Positions 29,298 to 48,612 of a stretch of DNA of 64,000 nt are shown here, piece after piece; positions within the stretch are counted from its first letter, which is position 1; each line of letters opens with the position of its first letter. The stretch covers positions 1,588,239 to 1,652,238 of the forward strand of contig OY762064.1 of NCBI GenBank assembly GCA_963665145.1, written 5' to 3'. The notes under the pieces are model-generated. The model had not been told where the DNA came from. It worked only from the letters and a program-made list of their open reading frames with translations, and did no database searches. Origin of the DNA: Gammaproteobacteria bacterium (GTDB lineage: Bacteria; Pseudomonadota; Gammaproteobacteria; Steroidobacterales; Foliamicaceae). The translations under genes were made by a program, and so were the position numbers.

Positions 29298-29420
29298 CTG
29301 GGCCCATAGGCTTCACTGCCCCGGAACCGTTGACGGGAAAGCTGTCGCCATGGCCTATTTCAAGCGAACACGCGTCGGATCTGGGCTACCAGCCCCTGAA
29401 CTCAATCGAGCGGAATCGGC

Positions 29421-30608
29421 TCAGGTCGATCGCATCCGCTCGGCCCTCGACAGTTTCTGCAACACGCCTTTGATCCGACCCACCGCTTCATCGATGTCGT
29501 CATCGCTTGTGGCGAAGCCGAGACTAAAGCGGATGGAGGATTCAGCCTCGTCACAACTCAGGCCGATTGCTCTCAGGACATGCGAAGGTTCCGGTATGCC
29601 CGACGTGCAGGCCGAACCGGTCGAGGCTGCGACATGCGGCTGCAAAGCGACCAGTATGTCGTGGGCCGCGAATCCCACGAACCCGATATTCGCGTTGCCG
29701 GGATGTCGGGATTGCCCCTCCGGGCCATTCATAGTGATCGGCCAAGCAAGTCGCCTCAGACCGGTAACGAACCTGTCTCTCTTGCGGCGCAACTTCTTAC
29801 GCCGATTTTCGGCGGTCGCGTCCGTAAACATGTCTGCGGCTACGCCCATGCCAACGCAAAGCGGGATGGGCACCGTGCCCGAGCGCAAACCGTTCTGCTG
29901 GCCGCCGCCGTAGATCAGCGGTTCGATCCGGTCTTGAAGTTCCCGTGCAATATAAGCGGCTCCTATTCCCTTCGGCCCGTACATCTTGTGTGCTGAAATA
30001 CTGAGAATATCGACGTATTCGGCGAATGAACTCAGCTCAATTGCGACCGGTGCTTGTGCCGCGTCGCAGTGAAATGCGGCACCGTAGTTCCTTGCGACCT
30101 TTGATAGACGCTTGATATCCTCAATCGTTCCGATTTCGTTATTCACGGCCATGATCGATACAAGAAGAACATCGTCATCCAACGATTCTTCAAGCGTTGA
30201 CGCTTCGATAAAACCCTTCGAGTCAACTGGCAGGAGTTCGACTTTCAAGCCTAGCCGTTCTTCAATCGCGCGCCCCGCGGCCAGGACGCATTTATGCTCG
30301 GCGGCGCTGACCAGCACACGCCGGCGCATGCCGCCGCGCGCGCGGCGCGCGAGCCCCAGCAAGGCGAGGTTGTTCGCTTCGGTCGCCCCCGAAGTGAAGA
30401 TGATTTCATCGGCGTCCGCACCGATCAAGCGTGCGACTCGGGCGGCGGCCTCGTCCACGGCGCGCAATGTTTCCCATCCGAGGGCGTGATCGACGGAATG
30501 CGGATTGCCGAACGATTCAGTGAAATACGGCGTCATTTCGGCAAGAACACGCGAATCTAACGGCGTGGTCGCCTGATGGTCGAGATATATGGTGTCTCTA
30601 ATTCTCAT
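29421..30608 (-). CDS. sspA: cysteine desulfurase (IscS/NifS/DndA class), SspA-type
   Basis: 395 aa. The PLP-lysine region is LSISAHKMYGPKGIGA and the active-site Cys loop is GSACTSG. It is divergently placed next to sspB-like genes. Confidence 0.8.
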   Translation of the reverse strand: MRIRDTIYLDHQATTPLDSRVLAEMTPYFTESFGNPHSVDHALGWETLRAVDEAAARVARLIGADADEIIFTSGATEANNLALLGLARRARGGMRRRVLVSAAEHKCVLAAGRAIEERLGLKVELLPVDSKGFIEASTLEESLDDDVLLVSIMAVNNEIGTIEDIKRLSKVARNYGAAFHCDAAQAPVAIELSSFAEYVDILSISAHKMYGPKGIGAAYIARELQDRIEPLIYGGGQQNGLRSGTVPIPLCVGMGVAADMFTDATAENRRKKLRRKRDRFVTGLRRLAWPITMNGPEGQSRHPGNANIGFVGFAAHDILVALQPHVAASTGSACTSGIPEPSHVLRAIGLSCDEAESSIRFSLGFATSDDDIDEAVGRIKGVLQKLSRAERMRST

Positions 30609-30695
30609 TTAGCCTCAATAGCATAGACGCTGAAATCCCTGAGCTTACCCTCCTGCCGGCATCGGCGTGTTTCTGGGGCACGCCTCCAGGTCCAA

Positions 30696-30725
30696 TTGAC
30701 CATAGCACGCCATTCGGGCTACAGT
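30696..30725 (+). promoter_or_regulatory. possible sigma70-type promoter for sspBCD (TTGACC-18 nt-TACAGT)
   Basis: These hexamers were read directly in the 152-bp divergent sspA/sspB intergenic region. The spacer is one nt longer than optimal. Confidence 0.25.
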
Positions 30726-30760
30726 CGAGCTGGAGGCATCATCCAGTAGCCGAGGCACCA

Positions 30761-31723
30761 ATGGCGCGCGGACCACTTTTTCAAGACACCTACAGCCCGC
30801 AGTTTTCGGGCCATGAAACCTTCCCGCTTCGTTACGGGTGGCTGAAAAAGTCGTATGACCGTGTTGCAGAGACCGAACACGAAGAAGAGAACAGGACTCT
30901 GTGTTGGGATGATGACGCCATTGCGCGATTCGGCGTCGGCAAGAACATGGTCGCCTCAATGCGCCATTGGGCGAAGGCGGCGAGCATCATAGAAGAACCG
31001 GCGATCAATGCCGTCAGAACGACTGAACTCGGACGAAAGTTAGTGAGCAACAATGCCGGGTTCGATCCGTATATGGAGCATCCCGCGACCCTGTGGCTGA
31101 TACATTGGCAATTGGCAGCCTATCCCAAAAAGACGACATGGTTCTGGGCGTTCAGTCACTTCCCGGCAATTACGTTCGAGCGGGACCATTTCGTGAAAAA
31201 GCTCGACTGGCTTGCGAAAGATCGCAATTGGTCGCGGGTGGCGACCACGACCATTAGAAACGATGTTGCGTGCTTTATCCGCACCTATGTTGCGCGTGCA
31301 CCATCGGGGAGAACCGGCCATGATGATGCGCTAGAATCGCCCCTCACCGAGTTGGGCCTAATAAAGCCAGTCGGAAAGAAAGACATATTCCGCTTTGTGC
31401 GCGGCCCGAAATCCACCTTGGGCGACGGCGTGTTCGCCTACGCCCTGACCGATTTCTGGTCGCGGTATTCTCCTGATGCGGCGACGCTCGCTTTCGAGGC
31501 CATCGCGCATGCGCCTGGCGCGCCGGGTCGTGTGTTTTGCCTGGATGAAAACGATGTTGCTGACCGGCTCGCTGCTCTCGACGACGCGACGGGCGGCGCA
31601 CTGCAATGGTCCGAGACCGCGGGGTTGAAGCAGGTCGTCCGCAACGTCAAAATCGACGGCGACACCAGATTCAAATGGCTGCCTATGGATTACGGCAGCG
31701 CCGCCCAAAGGGAGGCTGCGTAA
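30761..31723 (+). CDS. sspB: DUF4007-family protein, SspB-type
   Basis: 320 aa. The N-terminal FSGHETFPLRYGWLKKSYD is the block I associate with DUF4007/SspB. Its stop overlaps the next ATG (TAATG). Confidence 0.75.
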   Translation: MARGPLFQDTYSPQFSGHETFPLRYGWLKKSYDRVAETEHEEENRTLCWDDDAIARFGVGKNMVASMRHWAKAASIIEEPAINAVRTTELGRKLVSNNAGFDPYMEHPATLWLIHWQLAAYPKKTTWFWAFSHFPAITFERDHFVKKLDWLAKDRNWSRVATTTIRNDVACFIRTYVARAPSGRTGHDDALESPLTELGLIKPVGKKDIFRFVRGPKSTLGDGVFAYALTDFWSRYSPDAATLAFEAIAHAPGAPGRVFCLDENDVADRLAALDDATGGALQWSETAGLKQVVRNVKIDGDTRFKWLPMDYGSAAQREAA

Positions 31724-34700
31724 TGCCATTGAACAAACATGTCCGCATAGCACGCCGCTTTTTGAGGTCGATCCGGATTGACACCGATCTTGGAGAGACC
31801 TCGGCTCTTGAAGGATTTATATGCCCGCAATCTTCAGCCGACGTACTCGCGACGATGGCGCGGCATGTAGCTGAGACCGGACAAGGCGCGTTCACATGGA
31901 CCGGCCCTTACGGCAGCGGCAAGTCGAGCCTTGTCGTCGCGCTCGCGGCATTGCTGAATGGGAATGCCGGATTGCAGGGGCAGGCGGGGAAGCTGTTCGG
32001 CCGCAAGCTGACTGGTGACATTCACAGGGCGATGCCGACCGGCAGGAAGGGATGGCGCGTCGTTCCCGTGGTCGGCCGCCGCGACAACCCCGTGGCGGTC
32101 ATCGGCGAGGCCGTGCATAAATCCGGGATCCTGTCGCGCCGGCCGCACGGCGGCTGGTCCGAGCAAGAACTGATCGACACGCTGGTCGATGCGGCGGCGG
32201 AAAAATCGAAGACGCATGGCGGGCTCGTACTGTTCATTGACGAAATGGGCAAGTTTCTGGAAGCCGCCGCGCAGGACGGCTCTGACATCTACGTTCTTCA
32301 ACAGCTCGCCGAAACGGCCTCGCGCAGCGGTGGGCGGTTGCTGATCGTCGGCATCCTGCACCAGGCATTCGAGGAATACGCCCATCGGCTCTCCCATGAG
32401 AAGCGCGACGAATGGGCGAAGATTCAGGGGCGGTTCATCGACCTGGTCGTCAACACCGCCGGTGAAGAACAGATTGAGTTGATCTCCCGCGCCATCGAGA
32501 GCGATCCCTGTCCACGGAAATTCCACCGGCTTGCCGCGACGGTCGCAAATTTCGCCCGGCGCGATCGCGTCGGCGACGCGCAACGGCTCGCGTCGATGCT
32601 TGAGGCTTGCTGGCCCTTGCATCCCGTCGTAGCCTGCCTTCTCGGGCCGATATCGAGACGGCGCTTCGGCCAGAACCAGCGCAGTATCTTCGGGTTTCTG
32701 AATTCGTCGGAGCCCCACGGGTTTCGAGACTTTCTGAACACTGCCGGTGACGATGCGCTCTACGGGCCGGATCGGCTCTGGGATTACCTGCGGGCGAATC
32801 TCGAACCTTCGATTCTCGCGTCGCCTGACGGGCACCGTTGGGCGCTGGCGGCCGAGCCGCTGGAGCGCTGTGAGGCCATCGGCGGCAACGAACTCCATAT
32901 CAGCCTGCTCAAGACCATCGCGGTCATCGACCTGTTCAAGGAGCGCTCCGGCCTCGTCGCGCGGTTCGACCTGCTGCGAAGCTGCTTTCCGAGAGAGACT
33001 GTCACGACGCTGGAAAATACTCTTTCCGACCTCGACACTTGGTCGTTCACGACGTTCAAGAAGTTCCTCGACGCGCATGCCATCTTCGCCGGAAGCGATT
33101 TCGATATCGACCGGGCCGTGCGTGGCGCGCTCGACGACATTGACGAGATCGATTTTGCGGAGCTGAAACACCTGGCGGGGTTGCAGCCGATTCTCGCTAA
33201 GCGCCACTACCATAACACCGGCGCTTTGCGTTGGTTCGATGTCAACATCGTGCCTGTCAGCGAGCTGGAGCGCGTCGCGGCCGGATTCGCGTCTGAGAAC
33301 GGCGCAATCGGTCAGTTTCTTCTCGCAATCCCGACGGATGGGGAGAGCCAGCAGCTTGCGGAAAAGCTGTGCCGCAAGGCAGCACGGCACAGCGACGCGT
33401 GGGATATCGTTGTCGGCATCTCCAAACGGTCGTGGGCCATCGTGCCGCTGGCGCGTGAACTTTTTGCCCTCGACAGCGTCGGCAACGACCACCCCGAACT
33501 GGCCGGGGACAGTGTCGCGCGACGCGAAGTGTCCGCCCGGCTGGCGACGCTGCAAGCTTTGCTTGAATCCGAGTTTCACAAGGCCTTCGACAACGCCCTG
33601 TGGTTCCGCAAGAATCACCAGCCCAAACACCTGCGGCAAGCGGACCTGAACAGCGTTGCGTCCGAACTTGCAGACAAGCGCTACGATGCGTGCCCGCGCC
33701 TGCACAACGAACTTCTTAACCGGCACAAGCCGTCCAGCAACGCCATTGCCGCGCAGAACACCCTGCTGCGGAACATGGTGCTGAACGAAGGGACGGACCG
33801 GCTCGGCATCAAGCGGTTCCCGGCGGAAGGCGGGCTGTTCGCGTCGATACTTGAAAAGACAGGCCTTTATGCGAATCCCGGTAACGGGTGGCGTTTCGTC
33901 TCTCCCACCGAGGACGACGACGATCCGTGCCGTCTCGCCCCTGTGTGGCAAAAGGCGCTCGACCTTTTGAAACGGAATGCAGACCGCACCGTCGCAGTCT
34001 CGGAAATCTTCGATGAGTGGCGCAAACCACCCTATGGCGTCAAAGACGGGTTGATGCCGATTCTCGCCGTCGCGTTCATTTTGTCGCAACGCGACAAACT
34101 CGCCGTCTATCGCGAGGGAATATTCCAGGCGCGGTTCGACGATGTTGATGTCGATTATCTTGCGAAGGATGCTGGCGCGATCCAGTTGCGCTGGATGAAC
34201 CTGACCGATGTTTCTCGCCGCCTGTTGTCCGATATGGCGAAAGTCGTGCGCGCGCTCGACAGCGAAAACAAACTCGTGCACTTGGAGCCGCTTGATGTCG
34301 CGCGCGGCCTTGTCGCAATTTTCGACCGACTGCCGCAATGGACCCGGCGGACGATGCGCTTGTCCGCCAATGCGGTTCATGTCCGCGATATCTTCAATCG
34401 AGCGAATGATCCGAACAAGTTCCTATTCGACGATATTCCGGCGACGCTCGGCGAAGACCTTTCATCCGCTAAGGGCGAGGACCTTGGCCACGTGGTCGCG
34501 AGCGTTCGCGGCGGGCTTGAGGAGCTGGTGCATGCCTATCCGGAGATGCTGAACCGTTTGCGCGACATCATGCTCGCGGAATTGCAGGTTCCGAACGCTT
34601 CGCCGGAATCGCTCGCGGAGTTGCGCGACCGGGCCGAAAACATAAGGCAACTTGCCGGAGATTTTCGGCTGGATGCGTTTATCGTCCGGCTGTCCGCCTT

Positions 34701-35115
34701 CGACGGGACCGACGAGAGCTTCGAGGGGATTGCCAGTCTCGCCACCAACAAACCGCCGCGCGACTGGGTCGATCCCGACCTTGACCGCGCCGCGATCGAG
34801 CTTGCCGACCTGGCGCAGAAGTTCACACGTGCCGAGACCTATGCGCGCGTCAAGGGGCGTCCGGAGAAGCGGCAGGCAATGGCCGTGGTGATCGGCATGG
34901 ACGGCCGACCCGCGCCGCTCCTGGAGGAATTCGACATAGCCGACTCGGACCGCGCCGCCGTGAACGAGTTGATCGAACGCGTCGCCTCAGCCCTCAACGA
35001 ATCCGACACGACTCGCCGCAGCATCATCCTCGCCGCGCTGGCGGAACTCAGCACGCGATACATGCATGCGCCGGAACGGACCAAAAAGAACCGGGAAGAA
35101 AGAGCCGCATCTTGA
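31723..35115 (+). CDS. sspC: large P-loop ATPase, SspC-type
   Basis: ATG at 31723 (MPLNKHVRIARRF..), about 1130 aa. Walker A is TGPYGSGKSS and Walker B is LVLFIDEMGKF. The position between the DUF4007 and PAPS-reductase genes matches ssp clusters. Confidence 0.7.
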   Translation: MPLNKHVRIARRFLRSIRIDTDLGETSALEGFICPQSSADVLATMARHVAETGQGAFTWTGPYGSGKSSLVVALAALLNGNAGLQGQAGKLFGRKLTGDIHRAMPTGRKGWRVVPVVGRRDNPVAVIGEAVHKSGILSRRPHGGWSEQELIDTLVDAAAEKSKTHGGLVLFIDEMGKFLEAAAQDGSDIYVLQQLAETASRSGGRLLIVGILHQAFEEYAHRLSHEKRDEWAKIQGRFIDLVVNTAGEEQIELISRAIESDPCPRKFHRLAATVANFARRDRVGDAQRLASMLEACWPLHPVVACLLGPISRRRFGQNQRSIFGFLNSSEPHGFRDFLNTAGDDALYGPDRLWDYLRANLEPSILASPDGHRWALAAEPLERCEAIGGNELHISLLKTIAVIDLFKERSGLVARFDLLRSCFPRETVTTLENTLSDLDTWSFTTFKKFLDAHAIFAGSDFDIDRAVRGALDDIDEIDFAELKHLAGLQPILAKRHYHNTGALRWFDVNIVPVSELERVAAGFASENGAIGQFLLAIPTDGESQQLAEKLCRKAARHSDAWDIVVGISKRSWAIVPLARELFALDSVGNDHPELAGDSVARREVSARLATLQALLESEFHKAFDNALWFRKNHQPKHLRQADLNSVASELADKRYDACPRLHNELLNRHKPSSNAIAAQNTLLRNMVLNEGTDRLGIKRFPAEGGLFASILEKTGLYANPGNGWRFVSPTEDDDDPCRLAPVWQKALDLLKRNADRTVAVSEIFDEWRKPPYGVKDGLMPILAVAFILSQRDKLAVYREGIFQARFDDVDVDYLAKDAGAIQLRWMNLTDVSRRLLSDMAKVVRALDSENKLVHLEPLDVARGLVAIFDRLPQWTRRTMRLSANAVHVRDIFNRANDPNKFLFDDIPATLGEDLSSAKGEDLGHVVASVRGGLEELVHAYPEMLNRLRDIMLAELQVPNASPESLAELRDRAENIRQLAGDFRLDAFIVRLSAFDGTDESFEGIASLATNKPPRDWVDPDLDRAAIELADLAQKFTRAETYARVKGRPEKRQAMAVVIGMDGRPAPLLEEFDIADSDRAAVNELIERVASALNESDTTRRSIILAALAELSTRYMHAPERTKKNREERAAS

Positions 35116-35951
35116 AAGCCGAAAACGTGAAACATGTTCTGGGGCTCTCTGGCGGCCGCGACAGCGCGGCTCTTGCCGTCTATATGCGGCAACATCACCC
35201 AGAGATGGAGATAGAGTATTTCTTTACGGACACCGGCAAGGAACTGCCTGAGGTCTATGAATTCCTCGGGCGTCTTGAAGGATTTCTCGGGCAGGAAATC
35301 CGCAAACTGAATCCCGACCGCGACTTCGACTTCTGGCTCAAGCAGTACAATAATTTCCTACCCTCGCCCCAAGCGCGCTGGTGCACACGGCAGCTCAAGC
35401 TCCGCCCGTTCGAACTCTGGCTGCGTCCGATGCTCGAAGACGGCATAACTGTCTACAGCTATGTCGCGATCCGCAGCGATGAGGCATACAGGGCGGGCTA
35501 TGCCTCGAAACACGACAACCTAGTCATCAAGCTGCCATTCAAGGATACGGGCATAGACAAGCCCGGTGTTCTCGAAATTCTCGACGGCGCGGGCCTTGGC
35601 CTGCCCAAATACTACGAATGGCGCACGCGTAGCGGTTGCACGTTCTGTTTTTTCCAGCAGAAGATCGAATGGGTGCGGCTCAGAGAGCGGCACCCAGAAG
35701 CGTTCGAGGAAGCCAAGGCGTACGAGAAGGATGCCGTGGAACATGGTTCGCCGTTCACTTGGAGCCAGGGAGAATCGCTGGAAGAGTTGGAGCAGTCCGA
35801 GCGGATCGCGCAGATTAGGGCCGATCACGCGGACCGTCTAGCGCGCATGCGCGCAAAGGTTCAGTCGAATCCCCTGAGACCGGACAGCGAGCCTCTGGAT
35901 ATTGATGATCTTTACGGTCAGGCGAAGAGTTGCCTGGCATGTCACAAATGA
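35112..35951 (+). CDS. sspD: PAPS-reductase/ATP-pyrophosphatase family protein, SspD-type (DndC-like)
   Basis: 279 aa with the PP-loop LGLSGGRDSAA and the Cys clusters CTFCFF and CLACHK. The TTG start overlaps the sspC stop by 4 nt; an alternative GTG lies a few codons downstream. Confidence 0.8.
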   Translation: MKAENVKHVLGLSGGRDSAALAVYMRQHHPEMEIEYFFTDTGKELPEVYEFLGRLEGFLGQEIRKLNPDRDFDFWLKQYNNFLPSPQARWCTRQLKLRPFELWLRPMLEDGITVYSYVAIRSDEAYRAGYASKHDNLVIKLPFKDTGIDKPGVLEILDGAGLGLPKYYEWRTRSGCTFCFFQQKIEWVRLRERHPEAFEEAKAYEKDAVEHGSPFTWSQGESLEELEQSERIAQIRADHADRLARMRAKVQSNPLRPDSEPLDIDDLYGQAKSCLACHK

Positions 35952-35993
35952 CCGCAGCCGAGTCGAAGAATGATTGCAACGAGGGCATAAGAA

Positions 35994-36521
35994 TTGAGTT
36001 TCGATCTGCTCAGAGATTTTGCGAATGAAGCGAACCGGGAAATCGGCGCCTTCCAGCTCCGCTTCATCTTGTCGCCCGACAAGATGCGGCGGGACAACTA
36101 CGATTTTCAAGAACTGAACTGGGACTCCATTCACTTCGGCGACGACGCTGAAATCGAGAAAATTCCAGCCGACAAACGGGGCGTCTATGCGCTCACCATT
36201 TGTCATCCGAGCAAGGTTCTGCCGCCGCACGGATATGTCATTTACATCGGTATCGCCGGGCGACGATCGGATCGACCGCTTCGAGAGAGATACAAAGATT
36301 ATCTGAACGAAAGGCGTATCCAGAAAAAACGACAGCCTCTGGCCTATGCGATCGGAAATTGGCAGCACGTACTTCGGTTTTACTTCGCGCCCGTCGATGA
36401 CGGGTTTTCATCCGAAGACCTCGAAAATCTGGAAGAACAAATGAACACGGCGCTTATACCGCCTTACTCTTTCGGCGACCTAGAGGCTGACACCAAGCGC
36501 AAAAGGAAGGCGTTTCCCTGA
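35994..36521 (+). CDS. hypothetical protein with GIY-YIG-like motif pair
   Basis: 175 aa from a TTG start (alternative internal ATG at residue 31). The stretch KRGVYAL...GYVIYIGIAG...LRERYKDYL resembles GIY/YIG/Arg spacing but with a longer insert. Its stop overlaps the next ATG (TGATG). Confidence 0.45.
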   Translation: MSFDLLRDFANEANREIGAFQLRFILSPDKMRRDNYDFQELNWDSIHFGDDAEIEKIPADKRGVYALTICHPSKVLPPHGYVIYIGIAGRRSDRPLRERYKDYLNERRIQKKRQPLAYAIGNWQHVLRFYFAPVDDGFSSEDLENLEEQMNTALIPPYSFGDLEADTKRKRKAFP

Positions 36522-37792
36522 TGGCAGAAAAAAAGAAATCGCTTGATCCGATAGTGTTGCCCGCTCTTCGCGGAATCATGGGCGACTGGATATATTACAC
36601 ATGCCTGATGGATATCGGCGAACTGAGTAAAAGGGTGCGCTATGCCAAAGAAGTGCATAGTAACAAGCTGCTTTCCGACATGATACAGCGCAAGCTCAGG
36701 AGTGGGCGCGCCGCCCAGATTGCACAGTATCTCGAAGACCAGCCTGAAAGACTCTTCAACGCTTTGGTCGTCGCAACCTACGACGGGCAGCCGAACTGGC
36801 ATGCATTGAACGACGTGAAGAGCAGGACCAAGGACGGTGAGTTGGAAGGCCTGGACGACGACACGATTGCATCGGTCGGCTTCCTGACGCTCCGGGGAAA
36901 TGAAAAGCTGTTCGCTCTCGACGGGCAACACAGGCTCGCGGGAATCAAGAAGGCCATTCACGGCGGCATCAACCAGGACCCCTATGACGAGGTCTCGGTG
37001 ATTTTCGTCGGACACCGGGATACGAGTAAAGGGCTTGAGCGCACGCGCCGCCTCTTCACAACGTTAAACAAGACTGCAAGACCCGTCACGAAGGGCGAGA
37101 TCATCGCGCTCGACGAAGACGATGTCATGGCGATTTGCGCGAGGCGACTTATCGAGCAGACCAAACTTTTCGAGGGCAAAAGGATAGCGTTTGTGGCAAG
37201 CAACAACATACCGACCGCGAATACGACCGCCTTGACCACGATTGCCAATCTCTACGATGTCCTCACGATATTGTTTACCAACGCGCAATCCGACCTGAAT
37301 AAGCAGAAGGCCGATTTGCAGCGGGTACGTCCCGATGACGAGACGCTGGACAAATATTTCAAGTTCGCGGAAACCTATTTCCTTCAACTCAGAAAGAATT
37401 TCAAAGCGCTAGACGAATTTTTTGGCGCGAAAAACACCGACCCGGTGGTCAAGAAGTATCGCGGCAGCCACGGGGGACATGTGCTCTTCCGTCCGATCGG
37501 ACTGGAAATCATGACCCGTGTGATCGCCCGCTTCACAAAGGATATGAGCCTAGGGCGGGCCGTCAATCTTGCGGCCAAGCTGCCTGACAGCCTGAATGAA
37601 GAGCCGTTTCAGTGGCTTATGTGGGAGCCGAACAAGAAGATCATGCTCAATGGCCACAAGGTGACAATTCGTGAAGTTCTTTTGTACATGGTCGGAAAGA
37701 ATGCAAGAAACTACACCAAAGCGACATTGCTGGAGAGGTATCAAAGAGAAACCGGCGACCAAACGGCGGAACTCCCGGACACAATCTGGTGA
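36521..37792 (+). CDS. DGQHR-domain protein (DndB-like/ParB-like fold)
   Basis: 423 aa with a literal DGQHRLAGIKKAI motif in the FALDGQHR context and DndB-like length. Confidence 0.8.
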   Translation: MAEKKKSLDPIVLPALRGIMGDWIYYTCLMDIGELSKRVRYAKEVHSNKLLSDMIQRKLRSGRAAQIAQYLEDQPERLFNALVVATYDGQPNWHALNDVKSRTKDGELEGLDDDTIASVGFLTLRGNEKLFALDGQHRLAGIKKAIHGGINQDPYDEVSVIFVGHRDTSKGLERTRRLFTTLNKTARPVTKGEIIALDEDDVMAICARRLIEQTKLFEGKRIAFVASNNIPTANTTALTTIANLYDVLTILFTNAQSDLNKQKADLQRVRPDDETLDKYFKFAETYFLQLRKNFKALDEFFGAKNTDPVVKKYRGSHGGHVLFRPIGLEIMTRVIARFTKDMSLGRAVNLAAKLPDSLNEEPFQWLMWEPNKKIMLNGHKVTIREVLLYMVGKNARNYTKATLLERYQRETGDQTAELPDTIW

Positions 37793-37881
37793 ATACGTAT
37801 GCCGCCAAGCGGACGGGCGAGAATGCATACGAACGACTTGAATAGGAAAGGTCAGGTTCTTGCGCCCGCCATGAATGAACC

Positions 37882-39540: not shown

Positions 39541-41353
39541 GTCGCAAAGGCTCGACGGAGAAATCATTCCGCCCGAACTGGCCGTGAAGGCCATGCGCGA
39601 CAGCGGCTACAAAAACACCGCACACGCTCTCGCCGAACTGATCGACAATTCCGTCCAGGCGAACGCAAGCCATGTCGAGGTGATCTGCCTTGAAGAGTAT
39701 CGGAAGGTCAACGAACGCGCCAGCCGCAGGATTCAGGCAATCGGCACCCTCGACAATGGCGACGGTATGACGCCTGAGACGCTGCGTCTCGCCCTTCAGT
39801 TCGGGAACGGCACGCATCTGACGGACCGGAAGGGTATCGGCCGTTTCGGCATGGGGCTACCAAACTCGTCGATATCGCAGTGCCGCCGGGTCGAAGTCTG
39901 GACATGGCAAAACGGCCCCGACAACGCCATGTACTCCTATCTCGATGTAGATGAAATTGAAGGTCGGCGGCTGTATGCGGTTCCGACTCCCGCGCACAAA
40001 CCGATGCCCGATGAATGGCGCGCTTGTTCCGACAACGTCGACACGACCGGCACGCTCGTTCTCTGGACAAACTTCGACGATCATCGCCTGAGCTGGCGCG
40101 GCGCGCCGGCGACGCTGCGCCATACGGAATCGCTTGTCGGGCGCATGTACAGGAAGTTCATCGACAACGGTCGCCTGTCCATCCGACTCTTGGCATTGCT
40201 CGAAGACAAGGATGAACCGACCTTCGACGAATCGGTGCGCGTCAACGACCCGCTCTACCTGATGCGGAATTCATTGACCCCGGTCCCGTTCGACATCGAT
40301 CCGATGTTTCAGCCCTGGGGCGACGCGGACGAGGTGTTCTCTATCGATTACGACGGTGCAAAGCACGATGTCGTGGTCCGCATGAGCTGGGCGCGGGAAG
40401 AGACCGTGCCGGATGACAGAAGCGACCGCGGCTCAAAACCTTACGGAAAGCACGCTGCCAAGAATATCGGCCTTTCCATCGTCCGAGAGGGCCGCGAGCT
40501 AGACCTCGATCCTGCCTGGACCAACAGCTACGATCCGACCGAACGATGGTGGGGCGTCGAGGTCGAGTTTCCCTCGACGCTCGACGAGGTGTTCGGCGTT
40601 ACGAACACCAAACAAAGCGCCACGGTCTTCTCGCATATGGCCCAGTTCGATTGGAAGGCCGAGGCCAATTCCGGCGAATCGCGGTCGGAGTTTCAGGAGC
40701 GCATACAGGGCGAGGGCGATCCGCGTGCGATTCTGCTGCCCATCGTCGATCACATACGCGACCAGATTCAGGAGGTGCGCAGGCGCCTCAAGAAACAGAA
40801 TGTCGGACGCCGGACGAAAGAAGACCGGCATGACAAGCCTGACGTTTCCGACCTAGCCACGACAAAATTTCGCGAACGCGCTGACCAGGGACACGAGACG
40901 GAGTCGGACCACGAAGAGTTCACGGAAGAGGACCGCGACAATCTCGAGAAGGATCTCACCGAGGACAAACAATACCGGCAGGATGTCGCCCATGAAATCG
41001 CCCAAGCGACATTCACGCGCAAGCGTAAGGTCCTGTTTCTTGAAAAGGCGATGGAAGGCTACGCCTTCTTCAATGTTGAGCACAAACAGGGTGGAGTGAC
41101 CCAGGTTGTTTTCAACAGCGATCACCCCTTTTACGACCAGCTCATAGAATCGCTTCGGCCCCAGATCGGCGAAGAAACCGACGCCGAGTTGATGGAGCGG
41201 ATACACACGGCGGCCGACACGCTAGAATTGTTGTTTGCTGCCTGGGCGCGCTACGAGATGGAGGAATTGCGCCACAAGAACCGGCTGTTCGAGATGCGGC
41301 AGGAATGGGGAAAGATGGCGCGCTTCTTCCTCACGGAAGAGGACGACGAATGA
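39518..41353 (+). CDS. GHKL-superfamily ATPase (HATPase_c_3/MORC-like)
   Basis: ATG 39518 after GGGAGGA, overlapping the helicase 3' end by 23 nt. Bergerat-fold boxes are ELIDNSVQA (N), LDNGDGM (G1) and GRFGMGL (G2). The C-terminal region is acidic and helical. Confidence 0.8.
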   Translation: MSLTDAAESQRLDGEIIPPELAVKAMRDSGYKNTAHALAELIDNSVQANASHVEVICLEEYRKVNERASRRIQAIGTLDNGDGMTPETLRLALQFGNGTHLTDRKGIGRFGMGLPNSSISQCRRVEVWTWQNGPDNAMYSYLDVDEIEGRRLYAVPTPAHKPMPDEWRACSDNVDTTGTLVLWTNFDDHRLSWRGAPATLRHTESLVGRMYRKFIDNGRLSIRLLALLEDKDEPTFDESVRVNDPLYLMRNSLTPVPFDIDPMFQPWGDADEVFSIDYDGAKHDVVVRMSWAREETVPDDRSDRGSKPYGKHAAKNIGLSIVREGRELDLDPAWTNSYDPTERWWGVEVEFPSTLDEVFGVTNTKQSATVFSHMAQFDWKAEANSGESRSEFQERIQGEGDPRAILLPIVDHIRDQIQEVRRRLKKQNVGRRTKEDRHDKPDVSDLATTKFRERADQGHETESDHEEFTEEDRDNLEKDLTEDKQYRQDVAHEIAQATFTRKRKVLFLEKAMEGYAFFNVEHKQGGVTQVVFNSDHPFYDQLIESLRPQIGEETDAELMERIHTAADTLELLFAAWARYEMEELRHKNRLFEMRQEWGKMARFFLTEEDDE

Positions 41354-41354
41354 T

Positions 41355-42302
41355 ATGGCAGTTGTCCCTCCCGGCGACGGTATTCTCGAACTGCTCAGGG
41401 CCGCAAACGACCGGGTGATCATAGCAGCGCCGTACATCAAATCCCCGACGCTGCGCCGGTTGCTAAACGTCATTCCCGAGGCGGTGTCGGAGTGCATCTG
41501 CGTCACGCGCTGGCTTCCCGAAGATATCGCCTCCGGCGTCTGTGATCTCGAAATCCTCGACGATCTCACCCACGCGCGGGGCGGACGGCTTCTAGTGCAT
41601 CCACATCTGCATGCAAAATACTACTCTAACGGACACCAGACGCTTGTCGGCTCGGCCAACCTGACGGCGCGCGGCCTTGGTTGGCACAAACTATCCAATG
41701 TCGAAATATTGGTCGCACTTCCGGCCGATTTTGGAGGGCTCGTTGAATGGGAACAATCGCTGCTGGGTTCGGGTGTAGAGGGCACAGTTCAGTTGCGTGA
41801 CCAGATTCGCCGGCAATCGAAACTGCTGAAACAGGCCGGGGCTCTTCGCGGCGTTCCGGAAGTTGAAGAGAAAACCTTCGATCAAGAAGATCCCTCACTG
41901 TGGATACCACAGTGTCCGGCCCCGGAACGTCTCTGGGAAGTCTATCGCGGGCATGGCGCCGATACGATGGTGAGCAGTGCGTTCGAAGCGGCACAGGAAG
42001 ACCTTGCGGTATTGTCTTCTCCGCCGGGACTTACGCGTGATTTGTTCACGGCCTATGTAGCCGGAATATTGAAACAGATGCCATTGCTCACCGAGATAGA
42101 CAAACTGGCAGCAGTCGGTTTGACGGACGCGAAAGCACACGAGTTTTTGGCCGATCGACTAGGAAGTACGGATCACGAAATCGAATATGGCCAGGTCTGG
42201 CGCGTCGTCAAACAGTGGCTTGTTCACTTCTTCCCCGAAACCTATCGGCTCGAAACTGGCCAGGAAGTTCTAGTCAAAGGTCGTGAACTGCCGCGCCACT
42301 GA
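41355..42302 (+). CDS. PLD-superfamily (single HKD, Nuc/NgoFVII-like) putative nuclease
   Basis: ATG 41355, one nt after the GHKL stop. The HKD-type motif is HPHLHAKYYSNGHQTLVGSANLTARG. About 315 aa with a C-terminal region of unknown fold. Confidence 0.75.
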   Translation: MAVVPPGDGILELLRAANDRVIIAAPYIKSPTLRRLLNVIPEAVSECICVTRWLPEDIASGVCDLEILDDLTHARGGRLLVHPHLHAKYYSNGHQTLVGSANLTARGLGWHKLSNVEILVALPADFGGLVEWEQSLLGSGVEGTVQLRDQIRRQSKLLKQAGALRGVPEVEEKTFDQEDPSLWIPQCPAPERLWEVYRGHGADTMVSSAFEAAQEDLAVLSSPPGLTRDLFTAYVAGILKQMPLLTEIDKLAAVGLTDAKAHEFLADRLGSTDHEIEYGQVWRVVKQWLVHFFPETYRLETGQEVLVKGRELPRH

Positions 42303-42324
42303 CAGGAGCGTTTCTTTTCCTGTC
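42301..42324 (+). terminator. weak hairpin after the PLD gene (GACAGGA-10 nt-TCCTGTC)
   Basis: A 7-bp stem read directly from the sequence. The U-tract is weak and interrupted. Confidence 0.3.
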
Positions 42325-42821
42325 CATGAAAACATGATTTTGGTGCTTTGGACGAGTCTGGTCATGCTGTCGTGAACTGAATCCCGCTTGCCGCGGGTGT
42401 CGGCGACTTAGCATCGATCGGTCGTGCATGCGACTACTTACGGCCCCCATTTTCATGGCCGCACAATTCGGAAATCAGGCTCCACGTTGCATCAAGCTCT
42501 GTCTAACTTTGCGCTATTCACGATTGAATCCAACCACGGGTTTGAAGAAATCTGGCCGGGGTTGCGGCAGCACAACATTGAAAAGCCGCAGCGTAGTTAC
42601 GTTGAGCTCACGCAACATGTGAAGGCAACGCGTAAAGACTGAATCAGGAAAGAAGAGGAAACGCTTGACGTGACTAGGCAGCATGCGCCGCGATCGTTCC
42701 GGCCAGTTTGTCTGTCCTTGTGCTTGGCTCAGCGACAAAGGCAGCCCGGGATTTAAGTTACGCGAGGGTGCCTAAGTAAGCAAACTGACTGCTTCACCAG
42801 CCTCAATAGGATTCAAAATCG

Positions 42822-43904
42822 ATGAACAACCCCTATAGTCCCGAACAGAAAAAGTGGCTTAATGATCTTCAGGAACATTACCGATCCGTGACCAACGGCA
42901 TCTGCATGGCAACTATCCGGCTTGGTGGCGAAAGTTCCACGGAGCCATGCGAAGGTCCAATTGGACGCCGTCACGCAATCGCGAAGAGGCACCTGAAACT
43001 GATTGCGGAATGCAATGCCCAAATTCGAGCCATTAGGGAGACTGGGACATTTGCGAAATGGCCGGAGCGGGAAGATGATCTTCGACTTGTGCCTATCAGT
43101 CGGTTCAGCGCGGGCCGGTGGTCCTGCCAGAGGCACGACGAGAGGTTCGGGGGCATCGACGCACAAGAGATTGATCTCTCGGAACCCGAGAATTTGTTTA
43201 AGGCGGTCTACCGTGTAGTCCTACGCCAAAACCATCTAATGCTGGCCCGCTGGAATGCGTTTTTCGGCATGACCCAAACCGCGGAAGGATGGAATCTTTT
43301 CAAGGAAACAGCATTCGAGAGGACGTTAAGCGACGAAGAAGCGACCAAGGCGGAAGCCGCATGGAGGGATGAAACACACGCGGTCATGAGGAAGATGCGC
43401 GATCTTGAACGGCGATTGAGGCTACAAGATTGGAACTCCCTTGAATTCCGCGCGCTCCTGGTGGCATCCAATCCCAAAGCGGCGGGATGGGGTTGTCTCA
43501 TGATGAAGTTTGACTTGAGCGGTTTGCGCGCCGATGATCCACGAAGACATTGGGACCACCATATCGAATTAGGCTACATTATTGTGATTCCTCAACAAGA
43601 GGGACATGCCATCATCACCGCCTGTGAGCCAGAAACTCAATTTCGCGTACCAGAGATCGTAAAAATTCACAGATTTATGCCGGTGCGCACGAACCCCAAC
43701 GAACCGCACACGGCTGAAGCACTTTTGAAGCGCGGGCTTTCGCAAAGGATCTGGGAACTCAACGAAATTGGCATGTGCGAATCACTCTATCAATCCTGGT
43801 CGGATGCAGAACGAAACGAAGTTAAGGCCTGGATGAAGAAAAGGGGATCGCGCCAACCCACGCTGTTGAAACAGGCTTTGAATTCTCTTCCTAGTTTTCT
43901 CTGA
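42822..43904 (+). CDS. orphan hypothetical protein (360 aa), visibly lower GC
   Basis: A clean ORF preceded by a roughly 520-bp AT-richer spacer. His/Cys-containing N-terminal blocks (GRRHAIAKRHLKLI, WSCQRHDERFGGID). I could not assign a family. Confidence 0.5.
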   Translation: MNNPYSPEQKKWLNDLQEHYRSVTNGICMATIRLGGESSTEPCEGPIGRRHAIAKRHLKLIAECNAQIRAIRETGTFAKWPEREDDLRLVPISRFSAGRWSCQRHDERFGGIDAQEIDLSEPENLFKAVYRVVLRQNHLMLARWNAFFGMTQTAEGWNLFKETAFERTLSDEEATKAEAAWRDETHAVMRKMRDLERRLRLQDWNSLEFRALLVASNPKAAGWGCLMMKFDLSGLRADDPRRHWDHHIELGYIIVIPQQEGHAIITACEPETQFRVPEIVKIHRFMPVRTNPNEPHTAEALLKRGLSQRIWELNEIGMCESLYQSWSDAERNEVKAWMKKRGSRQPTLLKQALNSLPSFL

Positions 43905-44030
43905 CCTAATCGCGCGAGAAATTTTGTTCGCCAACTTCGCGCAGAACCCCATGCACCGCCCAAGGACGCGCTGGAAATCCTCCGCTACTTGGGGCAGCCA
44001 TTACATGACTGTGCACTTGTCCATCACAGC

Positions 44031-45623
44031 CTACGGTGCAACCTTCTCGAAGAGATTCGCCTGTTCCTCATCGCGCGGCAAATCCACCTCGGGCATCAGC
44101 TTCGCGACCGCTTCGGCCGGTACATTCCCGAGCTCCTTCGGCTCCAGCTTGTGTAATCCACCGCCGTAAACACGTCCCTCCCCAAGCATCGCCTTAGGAC
44201 AAATCTGATTCAGAATCTTCCACATTTGCCGTCTCAGTTCCGGCCGAGCTACCAGAGCCTGATGTAGCGGCCTCGATGGGTATAGCATCAAGTACACGTT
44301 CGCCGCTGTTGCCCGTGAATTATTCAATATGAAGCGGAAAGATCGCCCATTCTTCTTGTCGCTTCGGCCGAGATAGGTGCAGACGAAAGGTGCCGGGGGC
44401 CGGTTTTCCTGCATGTACCAGCGCTTTCGATGGCGACAGATGTAGCGATCTGCAATTCCCTCTTGCTTACCCTCCTCTAAATACGCCCACAAATTCGGAA
44501 AGCGATTCTTGATTTCCTCTTCGGCCCACGGTGGATCTAGCAGAAACAATCGGCGCTCCAGCACCGGATTACCGCTCCGATCACCCTTGACTTCATCCTC
44601 TGTCAAATAGCGTGGACTCGGCAGGATCGGTTTGAAGGCTTCCATCGGAAGTCCGCGGCGAGCAATCTCCTGCGACGACAGGATGAAGTAACGGTTATTG
44701 CCAGTAGCCAAACCCCGCTTGATCTTGAAGAAGTCGCCGAGTACTGGCCCATTGTTTTTCTCGTGCCTTTCCTTCGCCGGATAGCGTGTCCATTTTGGAT
44801 CGTGGCGCAATGTCTGCGCTGGTATTAGCCGCTCCAGCTTCGGTCGTTCCAACGTGCCACCATAGCTGAATCGCACTTGGTGATCTTCTTTCGGAGCCTG
44901 GTTGCGGAACCAGACTACTGCGGACGACACAAGTGCGTCACCGAACTGCACATCGTTGGGGTCGAAGCGATGAATGTGGAGAAGCGTCACCCTGTTCAGC
45001 AGGTAGTGCTTCACGGCGACACCGTAATTCACGTCCATGAACTCGCTCGGGATCAACCACCCCGCCAATCCGCCTTCCGCCATCCACGGGTGGCTCAAAC
45101 CCAAAAAATAGCAGTAGAGCCCTGCAAGCCCGTTGATCTCCACGCCGCAGGAATTCAGCGTCTCTTGCCTCAACCGTTTCTTCTCGACATTGACAATATG
45201 GTGATGCCGAACATAGGGCGGATTACAGATGACAAGGTTGAACCTGTCCCCAGCCTTCGGCACCTCAGACCGGGTAAAGTCCATTAGGCGGAGATCAAGC
45301 CCGGTGTTCCCCCATAGTCTTGCCGCTGGCCGACCGTAATGCGGGTCGATTTCGTAGCCCACGGCAGAGCGAATACAAGTCTGTGGAAACACGCTCAGCA
45401 ATGCGGAATAGAACGAGCCCGTTCCAAAGGCCGGGTCCATAAACCTTATGTCCTCGTTCGCTCCGAGTTGCCTCTGCGCATATCGCTGTATATCCGCAGC
45501 CAGCCCGGACGGTGTCGCAAATTGACCCATACGGTTGCGCATCTGTACGTCTCGACCTGTGTCCAGATCACGTTGCAATGCGATCCGCCGAGCTTCCAAG
45601 TCTGTAACTGTTGCCCTATTCAC
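44031..45623 (-). CDS. N6-adenine DNA methyltransferase (gamma class, Eco57I/TaqI-like catalytic domain + target-recognition domain)
   Basis: 530 aa. Motif I is FMDPAFGTGSF and motif IV is VICNPPYVRHH. Confidence 0.85.
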   Translation of the reverse strand: MNRATVTDLEARRIALQRDLDTGRDVQMRNRMGQFATPSGLAADIQRYAQRQLGANEDIRFMDPAFGTGSFYSALLSVFPQTCIRSAVGYEIDPHYGRPAARLWGNTGLDLRLMDFTRSEVPKAGDRFNLVICNPPYVRHHHIVNVEKKRLRQETLNSCGVEINGLAGLYCYFLGLSHPWMAEGGLAGWLIPSEFMDVNYGVAVKHYLLNRVTLLHIHRFDPNDVQFGDALVSSAVVWFRNQAPKEDHQVRFSYGGTLERPKLERLIPAQTLRHDPKWTRYPAKERHEKNNGPVLGDFFKIKRGLATGNNRYFILSSQEIARRGLPMEAFKPILPSPRYLTEDEVKGDRSGNPVLERRLFLLDPPWAEEEIKNRFPNLWAYLEEGKQEGIADRYICRHRKRWYMQENRPPAPFVCTYLGRSDKKNGRSFRFILNNSRATAANVYLMLYPSRPLHQALVARPELRRQMWKILNQICPKAMLGEGRVYGGGLHKLEPKELGNVPAEAVAKLMPEVDLPRDEEQANLFEKVAP

Positions 45624-46586
45624 CTACAATCCAAACTCCGCGAAATCGTGGATGCGGTGCTCCCAAACCCAGTCGATACCTTCCGCCGCCTCGTAACCGA
45701 GATAGCCGCTGTCGAAATACCCGCACAGGAATAATACGAAGCGCACATTGTTACCGTAGGTTCGGCGCAACTGGCTCATTTTCGCCGCTTCTTCCTTGCG
45801 TCTCTTGTTGACGTTTGTGAAGTCTCCTGCCGATTTTGCCTCGATAAGCAACGGCAGCTCACCAACCTTGGCGGTCTTGGCCATAACGACCGCGTCCACA
45901 GGGATATTGATGTTCTTGTCCGTTCCTTCCTGGGCGACGGGTACGTTGAGACGAAACGAGTATGTCCCAGGCTTCATCTCATCAAACTTCGTGCCTTCGC
46001 CGGAAGGAAGGTTCGTATACCCCAATGTCGCCAGCCATTCGCCAATGGCTTCGAGCTGACGCTTCTCCTGAGCATTGCGGATGATGGGATTCGCAACGGC
46101 TCCGCACAAACGATCAGCCACGATCGTCGCAGCTCTATACAGCTCCTTTTCGGACGGTTCGTTGCGGCGCTCCAACCACACGAAGACATCGGGATCGGCC
46201 ATCGTCTCGATTATCTTCCCCATCTTTTCTAAGTCTATGTCCAGTTTGTTCCTCGGCATCCGTGGCGGCATCCTGTCGTACTTCTCCATCGACTTGACCA
46301 AGTTCCCCGAGACCCCGGCAAGACCAATCAGCCGGTCTACGGCCAACGGCGGACAAGTGGACATCCGCAAGGTAGGCAACACCGAGGGTTTCGTCTTTAG
46401 CAGTTCTGGCCCTACGTTGGTCAGGTTCTTGGTCGCCTTCAGCGTCGCCTCGACATCCTCTGTGGTCTTTACTCGCGTCGCCCGGTATGCCTCCGGTGCA
46501 AATCGCATGAACCAGTCGTTGTACATATCCACCGACAGCGCAATGTCTTCCTTCCACCGATCCGGTTTATCCCTGTTGGCAGCCAT
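45624..46586 (-). CDS. type II restriction endonuclease, XamI-like
   Basis: About 320 aa, abutting the methyltransferase gene with no gap. The N-terminal block KPDRWKEDIALSVDMYNDWFMRFAPEAY resembles what I recall of the XamI (RE_XamI) family; this assignment is from memory only. Start is ATG 46586 or GTG 46589. Confidence 0.6.
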   Translation of the reverse strand: MAANRDKPDRWKEDIALSVDMYNDWFMRFAPEAYRATRVKTTEDVEATLKATKNLTNVGPELLKTKPSVLPTLRMSTCPPLAVDRLIGLAGVSGNLVKSMEKYDRMPPRMPRNKLDIDLEKMGKIIETMADPDVFVWLERRNEPSEKELYRAATIVADRLCGAVANPIIRNAQEKRQLEAIGEWLATLGYTNLPSGEGTKFDEMKPGTYSFRLNVPVAQEGTDKNINIPVDAVVMAKTAKVGELPLLIEAKSAGDFTNVNKRRKEEAAKMSQLRRTYGNNVRFVLFLCGYFDSGYLGYEAAEGIDWVWEHRIHDFAEFGL

Positions 46587-46774
46587 CACTTGCGCTTCTT
46601 TGTCTGCACGTCCCGACTAGCCTGCCGGCAAAGATCCCAAACTTCCACGAATAGGCCGTTCAGCCGCACGTTCCGCATTGCTGCTTCTTTATTGAAATCA
46701 ACGGCCGTCTGCCTAGTTAGCCGGATTCCAATTACCTGTGTCGATTGGCCCTTTTTCCATCCGACTGCTCACTA
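46586..46774 (-). CDS. possible small ribbon-helix-helix controller-like ORF upstream of the restriction gene; no canonical start for the full domain
   Basis: The minus-frame translation ..QVIGIRLTRQTAVDFNKEAAMRNVRLNGLFVEVWDLCRQ.. has an RHH beta-strand and helix pattern, and its stop overlaps the REase ATG by 1 nt. The only ATG (46678) would give 30 aa. Confidence 0.25.
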
Positions 46775-47061
46775 TCGTTCTTGGTGTAGGCATTGTTTGT
46801 CGACAAGTCGAAAGATGTCAAGCGTTTTCGGTGGACTCGTTCGAACACATTGCCAATCCACACAACCTACTGCCACCGGTGATTATTTTCTTACGCTAAT
46901 CCGATCATCCGCAAGGCCGTCACGTCCCCTGCCGTAAATGCCGCCTTTTCGTCCCCTGCACAGCCCGAAGAGAGCGAGTCCGGCCGGTAGCGGGGCGGCG
47001 GGCGGCGCTCCGGGGGGCGCTGCCGCCGTTCCCTTTCCCCTGACACAAGGAGCACGGCACG

Positions 47062-47388: not shown

Positions 47389-47473
47389 CCGGCACGCACC
47401 TGGGACGTGCCGCCGGCCCGCTGCCGGGGGGGCGTCCTGCCGTCCCGACTTCCACAGCTTCCGGAGACGCCAT

Positions 47474-48490: not shown

Positions 48491-48536
48491 GCGGTCCTCA
48501 TTCGTCGGGCGGGGGGTCCTGAGTTCGAGGATAGCG

Positions 48537-48575
48537 CGTGCCGGGCGAACGCCCGGGAGAGGAGAGGGAGAAGGG
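48537..48575 (+). promoter_or_regulatory. conserved leader element B (hairpin + polypurine tract)
   Basis: Near-identical to 23641-23679. It ends 37 nt before ATG 48613. Confidence 0.35.
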
Positions 48576-48612
48576 CTCCCCGTCCCGGGCGGACCCACGA
48601 AGGAGGTATCCC

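Follow-up and report, generated by a model that had tools for sequence, protein, structure and literature searches.

Which kind of DNA fills the space between a pair of integrase genes and a conserved gene module in the second of two similar units, when the same space in the first unit is almost bare? We address this question for a stretch of 64,000 nucleotides from a Gammaproteobacteria bacterium (assembly GCA_963665145.1, contig OY762064.1, positions 1,588,239 to 1,652,238), called the window below. We will argue that the window probably holds a site-specific integrative element, 25,166 bp long and in tandem with an older relative, and that the block at 29030-46945 is its cargo bay. The order of parts in such an element would be an 18-bp core, a head, two tyrosine-recombinase genes, the cargo, a module of four genes (A, B, SSB and Y), a non-coding tail of about 700 bp, a hairpin and a second core. 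We show the boundaries of the element, the fixed right edge of its bay and, across the family to which it belongs, a hypervariable filling.

Open reading frames (ORFs) were called with codon-position GC and annotated by Pfam, PADLOC and NCBIfam scans. A scan of a genome collection with gene A gave 62 loci, all in metagenome-assembled genomes (MAGs), and 71 loci were fetched altogether; they are referred to by L numbers.

The window contains two co-directional units, unit 1 at about 18.9-26.5 kb and unit 2 at 26532-51697. Each consists of a tandem tyrosine-integrase pair followed by gene A, gene B, an SSB gene and a DUF2493/YAcAr gene that we call Y, in a GC-rich backbone (about 0.65-0.72). The modules of the two units are homologous. 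Module 1 with its pre-A leader (21563-25718, plus strand; blastn, tblastx, Pfam) and module 2 with its own (46946-50966, plus strand) align by blastn over 21593-25767 and 46970-51016 in three blocks of 68-85% identity (E 1e-122 to 0). At the protein level, the identity between the units is 72% for A (108 aa in unit 1; 21686-22012 and 47062-47388), 55% for B (22097-23107 and 47474-48490), 74% for SSB (about 23976-24437 and 48871-49329) and 78% for Y (24792-25718 and 50049-50966), all on the plus strand.

Upstream of the modules stand the integrase genes, also on the plus strand. In unit 1 these are IntA1 (19034-20206, with a possible ORF start at 18875; Pfam Phage_integrase 1e-25 plus Arm-DNA-bind_3) and IntB1 (20210-21415; Pfam), and in unit 2 IntA2 (26647-27861, probable ATG at 26719; Pfam) and IntB2 (27858-29297; Pfam). 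A preliminary description of the window had placed the ends of the second integrases at 21415 and 29297 and proposed that an empty and a loaded version of one element stand side by side. The two frames stop there, both encode tyrosine integrases by Pfam, and in both units a first integrase precedes the second.

The edges of the slot can be located more closely. Homology between the units had been put at about 21480 and 46880; in a global alignment its detectable start is at about 21563 and 46946, which is 65-85 bp further right, and the blastn and tblastx matches begin at 21587-21594 and 46963-46970. To the left of these break-points the units are no more alike than shuffled sequences (local score 8, with a mean of 9.4 for the shuffles), and the slot of unit 1 has no similarity to 46590-46958 above that of shuffled controls. 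Since homology starts at 21563, the spacer of unit 1, the seemingly empty slot, spans 147 bp (21416-21562) and not the 65 bp or so first estimated. The proposal that the break-points are equivalent stands, as they lie 123 and 116 bp before the ATG of gene A.

The insert in unit 2 is indeed a large block, with a size of 17.6 kb if counted from the IntB2 stop (29298-46945) and 17.9 kb if counted from the left break (29030-46945), compared with 17.5 kb in the preliminary description. All cargo genes named there do lie between IntB2 and the module, but the left break is at about 29030, inside the IntB2 frame, and not at its stop codon. Among IntB2-type integrases, conservation ends at about residue 388-400, and what follows differs from locus to locus without any relationship; the terminal 80 or so codons of IntB2 (29030-29297) are low in GC and unlike the tails of the orthologues, the frame extending into variable DNA. 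The block was correctly described as less GC-rich than its surroundings, at 0.52-0.64 compared with 0.65-0.72 in the flanks and with a minimum of 0.52-0.555 at 42-47 kb. GC falls at 29000-29050 and climbs back at 46900-46950. We therefore delimit the variable block at about 29030-46945, because the conservation of IntB2 ends near residue 390 and GC breaks at both edges.

We now consider whether this block belongs to a discrete element. An exact direct repeat of 18 nt, ACCGTCACACCCCACGCA, is found at 26514-26531 and 51680-51697 on the plus strand, as the left and right core copies (attL and attR of unit 2), and two matches to it occurred in none of 100 shuffled sequences. The left copy closes the non-coding tail of unit 1 (25719-26513, with a short terminal hairpin at 26496-26509), which is homologous to L037 15904-16712 as far as the core, and the right copy closes the tail of unit 2 (50967-51679), which has the repeat CTGCGCTGAGGGAACA at two positions (51363, 51425) and ends in a hairpin with a T-run (51661-51679). 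A version of the core stands 400-900 bp after Y in more than 30 of the 62 loci, preceded by a short hairpin with a covarying stem. Homology to the unit 2 tail ends exactly at 51697/51698 in ten loci, and in six others it begins at 51680-51684.

Past the core, two alternatives are seen: either an integrase head (...GATGCAnnGAGCGAGACC) and, after it, a pair of integrase genes, or a conserved region leading to a NikA-like gene. In the window the former is the head upstream of IntA2 (26532-26718, plus strand, beginning CCGATGGTGCAGTGAGCGAGACC), with candidate arm-type sites at 26669-26686; a head of the IntA2 type follows the core in L012, L039, L023 and L031, and it begins directly after ...ACGCA in the window and seven loci. 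NikA-like homologues follow the core in 15 loci. In L037, a tail like that of unit 1, the core and the NikA side are contiguous, which gives an unoccupied site that lacks unit 2. In L012 (about 345-14331), the same gene order is bounded by a minimal ...ACGCA junction on one side and by a full core on the other, and when the flanks are joined they form one reading frame, with a single Cas_GSU0054 match spanning the junction (33.4 bits, cut-off 21). The L012 element thus sits precisely within a CRISPR-associated Cas_GSU0054 (Csb2-like) gene. In the window, no tRNA target is found by ARAGORN, and no Rfam family is matched.

Because of the 18-bp repeat, the unoccupied site in L037, the restored frame in L012 and the homology breaks at the core, the reading of unit 2 as a discrete integrative element (26532-51697, 25,166 bp) that would have landed in the core ending unit 1 is well supported. 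As in other integrative elements, an integrase gene is terminal, attL/attR repeats are present and a relative has an unoccupied site. In the mechanism that we propose, unit 2 would have inserted itself at the core that terminates the older unit 1, leaving two copies in tandem, and IntA2 and IntB2 would act jointly on the core with the help of arm-type sites in head and tail. The motifs CTGCGCTGAGGGAACA and TGAGACGAA, which are repeated in tail and head, are candidates for such sites, to which the arm-binding domains of the integrases may bind.

These boundaries also bear on another explanation, according to which the block is a resident chromosomal defence island caught between two independent insertions, with IntA2 and IntB2 forming the right end of the element of module 1. 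It is true that integrase pairs are often found directly downstream of a module tail (L023, L031, L033, L047), and that the same restriction-modification (R-M) block as in the window lies outside an attL-like junction in L064. However, the 18-bp repeat encloses integrases, cargo, module and tail together, no repeat flanks a combination of module 1 and integrase pair 2, L037 has the unoccupied site, and L012 carries the same gene order precisely inserted in a cas gene. We consider the resident island to be very improbable, and return to the integrative element.

If the block is a cargo bay, the same place should be variable in relatives, and this is what the loci show. The A-B-SSB-Y order is retained in about 40 of them, and in about 40 the homology edge lies 85-125 bp before gene A, the right edge being the same for both integrase types. 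The distance from the integrase to gene A is 0.26 kb in L020, 2.9 kb in L028, 4.1 kb in L039, 7.0 kb in L012, 7.4 kb in L049, 7.9 kb in L019, 8.9 kb in L025, 9.0 kb in L017/L051 and about 14.1 kb from L023 into L022 on the same contig, so that the overall span is 0.26-17.8 kb; in about 40 loci no integrase is present within 10 kb upstream. Across about 65 related loci, the ORFs upstream of gene A hardly ever recur, as 341 of them fall into 310 clusters. In each of 45 loci the module has a higher GC than the 8 kb upstream of it (mean 0.718 compared with 0.620; Wilcoxon p = 5e-9).

The slots of the relatives hold a type ISP-like Mrr-helicase-methylase fusion, a GHKL-SduA_C protein, a C5 methylase, an ankyrin protein and an autotransporter-lipase, and the gene tables of further contigs add type I R-M, HEPN, IS21, HigBA and AbiE. 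A PADLOC scan of 117 representative upstream proteins gave matches to 474 model families, including type IIG and type I R-M, PbeA, AriA, MADS, HEC-01 and NsnB. Defence systems make up most of the cargo. The suggestion of a cargo hotspot between integrase pair and module is hence supported by equivalent break-points and by variable DNA at the same place in relatives.

Directly upstream of gene A in L068-L072, the Pfam gene tables list a minus-strand pair of a HigB-like toxin and an HTH_3 antitoxin. A conserved, unannotated block about 200-800 bp upstream of A in L002, L006, L012, L017, L030, L037, L038, L040, L043 and L051 may be HigBA as well, and the pair is absent from both units of the window.

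We have also looked at the right slot edge for a site resembling an att site. Core-like strings are present at 21456-21473 and 46916-46933, but they are not general, occurring in 2 of 65 loci compared with 3 of 65 controls, and this candidate was rejected.

The integrases themselves call for a closer comparison. By Pfam, all four have Phage_integrase, arm-binding and SAM-like domains, the arm-binding domains being of the P4 type, and the catalytic Arg, His and Tyr motifs (R, H-x-x-R/H, Y) are kept in every one. Two integrases per unit are found in the window and nine relatives. Orthologues of IntA2 (69-82% identity) occur in L012, L019, L039, L023 and L031, and the pair of an IntA2-like and an IntB2-like gene is conserved in at least six loci. 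IntA1 and IntB1 are 50% identical to each other, either of them is 37-38% identical to IntA2 or IntB2, and IntA2 and IntB2 are 37.5% identical. Since the integrase pairs have diverged and the module alone is common, units 1 and 2 are not two states of one element. The idea of an empty and a loaded version of the same element thus survives for the module, which both units share, and fails for the integrase pairs, which are not orthologous.

This divergence is at the same time a ground for a second explanation, namely that the window holds two different elements with a swappable module, the slot being a seam between integration and establishment modules and its filling the cargo of the IntA2/IntB2 lineage. 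The integrase pairs are only about 37% identical compared with 55-78% for the modules, the two empty cases, unit 1 and L020, both carry IntB1-type integrases, and the cargo of IntA2/B2-type elements is never smaller than 4.1 kb. On the other hand, relatives of the IntA1/B1 type are also filled at the same place (7.4 kb in L049, with ankyrin and lipase genes, and 2.9 kb in L028), and both integrase types have an identical right edge. A seam between exchangeable modules is accordingly rather unlikely in our judgment, and the cargo bay of an integrative element is retained.

It is important to set out together the further points that weigh against the cargo bay. The low identity of the integrase pairs and the restriction of the empty state to two IntB1-type cases have just been given. 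For unit 1, neither a third core copy nor another bounding repeat was found, and its head has no homologue among the 62 loci; unit 1 may have lost a part or have used a different target, and would then not be a true empty sibling. The fetched loci cover 10 kb on either side, so that most slots are covered only in part, and the PADLOC matches in relatives are to single proteins and are not called systems. Host genes stand directly beside the module, with no integrase, in L065 and L068. The cargo is partly of a non-defence nature (ankyrin, autotransporter lipase, FN3/Ig proteins). A dedicated insertion site within the slot is unsupported, because the core-like motif is no commoner there than in controls. 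Among the ORFs of 18.9-52.4 kb there are no genes for a relaxase, a coupling protein or a type IV secretion system, and no origin of transfer (oriT) was identified in the element.

The bay is also not the only variable place, which belongs to the same list. The earlier expectation that relatives would place their cargo in this slot is borne out insofar as the slot is variable in them, but extra DNA is likewise carried past the core and in two gaps of the module, B-SSB and SSB-Y. Most loci have 380-500 bp between B and SSB; in eight this gap measures 2.7-6.5 kb, and its additional DNA encodes FN3/He_PIG proteins, a DUF4011 helicase-REase and an IrrE-like protein. Enlargement of the SSB-Y gap is due mostly to IS110, IS3, IS66 or a group II intron, with a toprim gene in one locus, and to the right of the NikA-like gene or core there are PIN, AbiE and SNF2-NOV_C genes. 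Among these variable places, the stretch from the integrases to gene A is the principal hotspot and not the sole one.

The FN3/He_PIG proteins of the B-SSB gap reach 1410 aa (L015, L018, L013, L023), and the slot of L049 encodes an 891-aa ankyrin-repeat protein and the autotransporter lipase. Eukaryotic-like proteins with FN3 or ankyrin repeats are typical of sponge symbionts.

We now describe what the bay of unit 2 contains. Twelve cargo genes lie between IntB2 and module 2, arranged as multi-gene operons on both strands. The first of them form a complete SspABCD set, with PADLOC E values of 1e-108 to 0 for all four: SspA (29421-30608, minus strand, 1e-128), SspB (30761-31723, plus, 2e-108), SspC (31606-35115, plus, E=0) and SspD (35112-35951, plus, 5e-136). 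Five co-directional genes follow on the plus strand at 35994-42302 (Pfam, PADLOC), which encode an unknown protein of 175 aa, a DndB-like protein, an SF2 helicase, a GHKL ATPase and a PLD-like nuclease. The PADLOC models for SspE, SspF, SspG and SspH have no match among them; the genes after SspD match only the models DndB, PbeA (weakly), MzaB and DrmC/ZacB, the weak PbeA similarity being that of the SF2 helicase gene. The five genes are a candidate restriction partner of Ssp. As a non-canonical downstream set, they may represent a new phosphorothioate-dependent restriction module.

Next come an orphan gene of 360 aa (42822-43904, plus strand), for which Pfam, PADLOC and NCBIfam give no match, and, on the minus strand, an Eco57I-like N6-adenine methylase (44031-45623; Pfam Eco57I 3e-11) and the XamI-family endonuclease that adjoins it (45624-46589; Pfam RE_XamI 2.5e-120), together a type II R-M pair. 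Of the twelve cargo genes only XamI has a tblastn homologue in the 71 fetched loci. It is in L064, where positions 1-2061 correspond to the whole R-M block at 95% nucleotide identity (blastn).

L064 is also the closest relative, with a gene A that is 90% identical, and its arrangement is instructive. The R-M block is joined there at ...AACGCA to a head and a copy of IntA2 that is truncated before the catalytic Tyr, and 6.6 kb with three other genes separate this truncated IntA2 from the pre-A leader; 7.8 kb of L064 corresponds to 67 bp in the window. In L047 (17202-20167), an integrase pair lies between two cores 2.95 kb apart, with neither cargo nor module; this is either a minimal unit made of integrases only or the product of a deletion. 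Taken at face value, L064 and L047 resemble intermediates of a process in which elements integrate in nested or tandem fashion and later decay. Cargo could accordingly turn over by two routes: homologous exchange between the integrase 3' end and the pre-A leader, or nested or tandem integration of relatives, after which the surplus integrase and module copies would decay. The first route, homologous recombination at the conserved flanks, stays equally possible, because no general core-like motif is present at the slot edge.

We turn next to the module, whose features may hint at how the element enters a cell. Gene B has five or six tandem CxxC...CxxC zinc-ribbon-like repeats and a conserved C-terminal domain of about 90 aa, and has no homologue in Pfam, NCBIfam or plasmids. 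Gene A has no Pfam or NCBIfam match, no plasmid homologue and no relative in IMG/VR; its AlphaFold model is poor (pLDDT 62.5), and Foldseek against the PDB gives nothing below E = 0.97. The family of gene A comprises 233 clusters among 5.8 billion proteins, none of which has a Pfam domain or is named as anything but 'hypothetical protein'. Homologues of Y, on the other hand, occur in 742 plasmids, 467 of them conjugative and mostly alphaproteobacterial; in pVL1_1 its neighbours are toprim, Sno and ParB genes, and traA is not far away.

Upstream of Y, a hairpin of about 150 nt is conserved (24590-24745 in module 1 and 49850-49998 in module 2, both approximate, and L001 8700-9000), with nine compensatory pairs. 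Folded as single-stranded DNA, it has -45.0 kcal/mol for the minus strand (z = -3.8) and -37.9 for the plus strand (z = -2.8), and in the alignment fold the minus or template strand has -54.6 compared with -33.8 kcal/mol, many G-U pairs being possible in the minus strand only. This consensus fold comes from a subgroup of eight sequences, and 29 heterogeneous upstream-of-Y sequences gave no structure. A comparable hairpin is found upstream of the pVL1_1 homologue (z = -4.1), and the conserved block upstream of SSB folds no better than shuffles (z = -0.6).

Plasmid leading regions are marked by SSB genes and hairpin single-stranded DNA promoters (PMC11541004). By analogy, the hairpin upstream of Y may be a Frpo/ssi-like single-strand promoter or priming site, which suggests entry of the element as single-stranded DNA, and the SSB/DUF2493 module would then serve establishment in the new cell. 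The module may be compared with a plasmid leading, or establishment, region (PMC11541004) in its SSB, its plasmid-type DUF2493 gene, the single gene orientation and the hairpin that is more stable in the template strand, and in some relatives also in a nearby HigBA pair. It differs in that no oriT or relaxase is identified, A and B have no plasmid homologues, and the promoter hexamers in the hairpin are weak.

This likeness leads to a third explanation, in which the short hairpin and the core are an oriT, that is, a relaxase nick site, by the NikA-like gene, and the tandem structure has another origin. The latter gene encodes a ribbon-helix-helix protein (51977-52390, plus strand; Pfam NikA-like 1e-6) on the target side of the core, and is the sole mobilisation-type gene noted, outside the repeat and with no relaxase beside it. 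A covarying inverted repeat 2-5 nt before the conserved sequence, the NikA-like gene on one side of the core and a leading-region-like SSB/DUF2493 module transcribed towards it would all fit an oriT. Yet no examined locus has a relaxase after the NikA-like gene, where PIN, AbiE, SNF2 helicase genes or IS elements are found instead; a MobA_MobL gene lies 8 kb upstream in one degenerate locus, L071. Furthermore, homology breaks exactly at the core, the core is duplicated around integrase-bearing segments including the 2.95-kb integrase-only unit of L047, and the flanks in L012 restore a gene. We judge an oriT at the core to be very unlikely, and keep to the core as the attachment site of the integrative element.

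Some observations concern the surroundings of the two units. Upstream of the NikA-like gene there are three GTATGC-N5-GCATAC palindromes (51789-51805, 51846-51862, 51889-51905), which are probably its operators. Adjoining unit 1 on the left, at 18090-18796 on the minus strand, is a PIN-domain (VapC-like) gene; an ORF that overlaps it upstream (18090-18572, no Pfam match) could be its antitoxin. The right flank (52958-63381) carries genes or fragments of IS5-, IS110- and Mutator-type transposases, a KAS III-like gene, a GH3-family gene and an HsdR-like helicase (61699-63381), and its stretch 61022-61709 is 92% identical to L064.

How widely is this family distributed? The backbone is present at 54-90% protein identity in chromosome-scale MAGs labelled as Alpha- and Gammaproteobacteria, Acidobacteriota (Bryobacterales, Vicinamibacteria) and Binatia, the Mb-scale contigs of Gammaproteobacteria/Alphaproteobacteria including Candidatus Poriferihabitaceae. 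Short contigs with the backbone are binned as Rhodothermales and Poribacteria, where mis-binning is possible. This spread makes the family a concrete candidate for the movement of genes between phyla within sponge holobionts. Some genomes hold up to 5-6 copies. Judging by taxon and isolate names, most samples would come from sponges or corals.

Cargo hotspots on tandemly arrayed integrative elements are well known as a concept. What seems to be new is the family itself, together with its distribution; a literature search found no description of it. A broader picture can be drawn, which we put forward as tentative and at somewhat less than even chance: an undescribed double-integrase family that moves among at least 4-5 phyla in sponge and coral microbiomes at up to 5-6 copies per genome, homes into the 18-bp core of its relatives and grows by nesting and decay, with a plasmid-like module for single-stranded DNA entry and template-strand hairpin promoters. 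If this is true, the family would be a main vehicle by which defence systems and eukaryotic-like proteins are exchanged among sponge symbionts. Cargo hotspots of mobile elements are the most efficient source of new anti-phage systems. The present bay is sharply defined, by the leader about 120 bp before gene A on the right and by the integrase 3' end on the left; its contents are almost never repeated, and the host genomes are very poorly explored for defence.

We finally compare the element with known systems. Defence-gene hotspots of integrative mobile elements are familiar from P4-like satellites, P2 prophages and hotspot 5 of the SXT/R391 integrative and conjugative elements (ICEs). The bay resembles these in its conserved flanking backbone, in the fixed position at which unrelated defence systems are swapped and in a cargo GC below that of the backbone. 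Unlike them, it has a backbone of two tandem integrases plus A, B, SSB and DUF2493, lacks conjugation genes and resides in uncultured MAG lineages, many of them named for sponges. A phage satellite is not indicated, since Pfam gives no primase, psu, sid or delta-type matches and gene A has no match in IMG/VR. An ICE was rejected as well, since an ICE would bring genes for a relaxase, a coupling protein and type IV secretion, and these were found neither in 18.9-52.4 kb nor downstream of the core in relatives.

Tandem accretion at a shared att site is known from ICESt3 with its cis-mobilisable elements (CIMEs) in Streptococcus and from SXT/R391 arrays. The parallel is that an incoming element enters an att site regenerated by a resident relative, which gives head-to-tail arrays, and that a decayed partner leaves cis-mobilisable remnants and captured genes, to which L064 and L047 may be compared. 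In contrast to ICESt3 and the CIMEs, the target here is neither a tRNA nor a host gene but the core that ends the family's own tail, beside the NikA-like gene, and the partners have non-orthologous integrase pairs.

As to the recombinases, an integron can be dismissed, because the four integrases score 23-48 bits with the NCBIfam integron-integrase models, far below the cut-offs of 265-435, and the cargo is organised in operons of several genes, which occupy both strands. An XerC/XerD-dif element (IMEX) was likewise rejected, the scores with the XerC/XerD equivalogs of NCBIfam being 47-75 bits compared with cut-offs of about 330. Elements with several recombinases include the Tn554 family (TnpA/TnpB), recombinase-in-trio elements, GInt islands and the XerC/XerD systems. 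Recombinase-in-trio and GInt do not fit, since there are two integrases per unit and not three; the P4-type arm-binding domains of both are a further difference. What the present family has in common with all of these is that adjacent, co-directional and overlapping or abutting recombinase genes are kept together, here as a pair.

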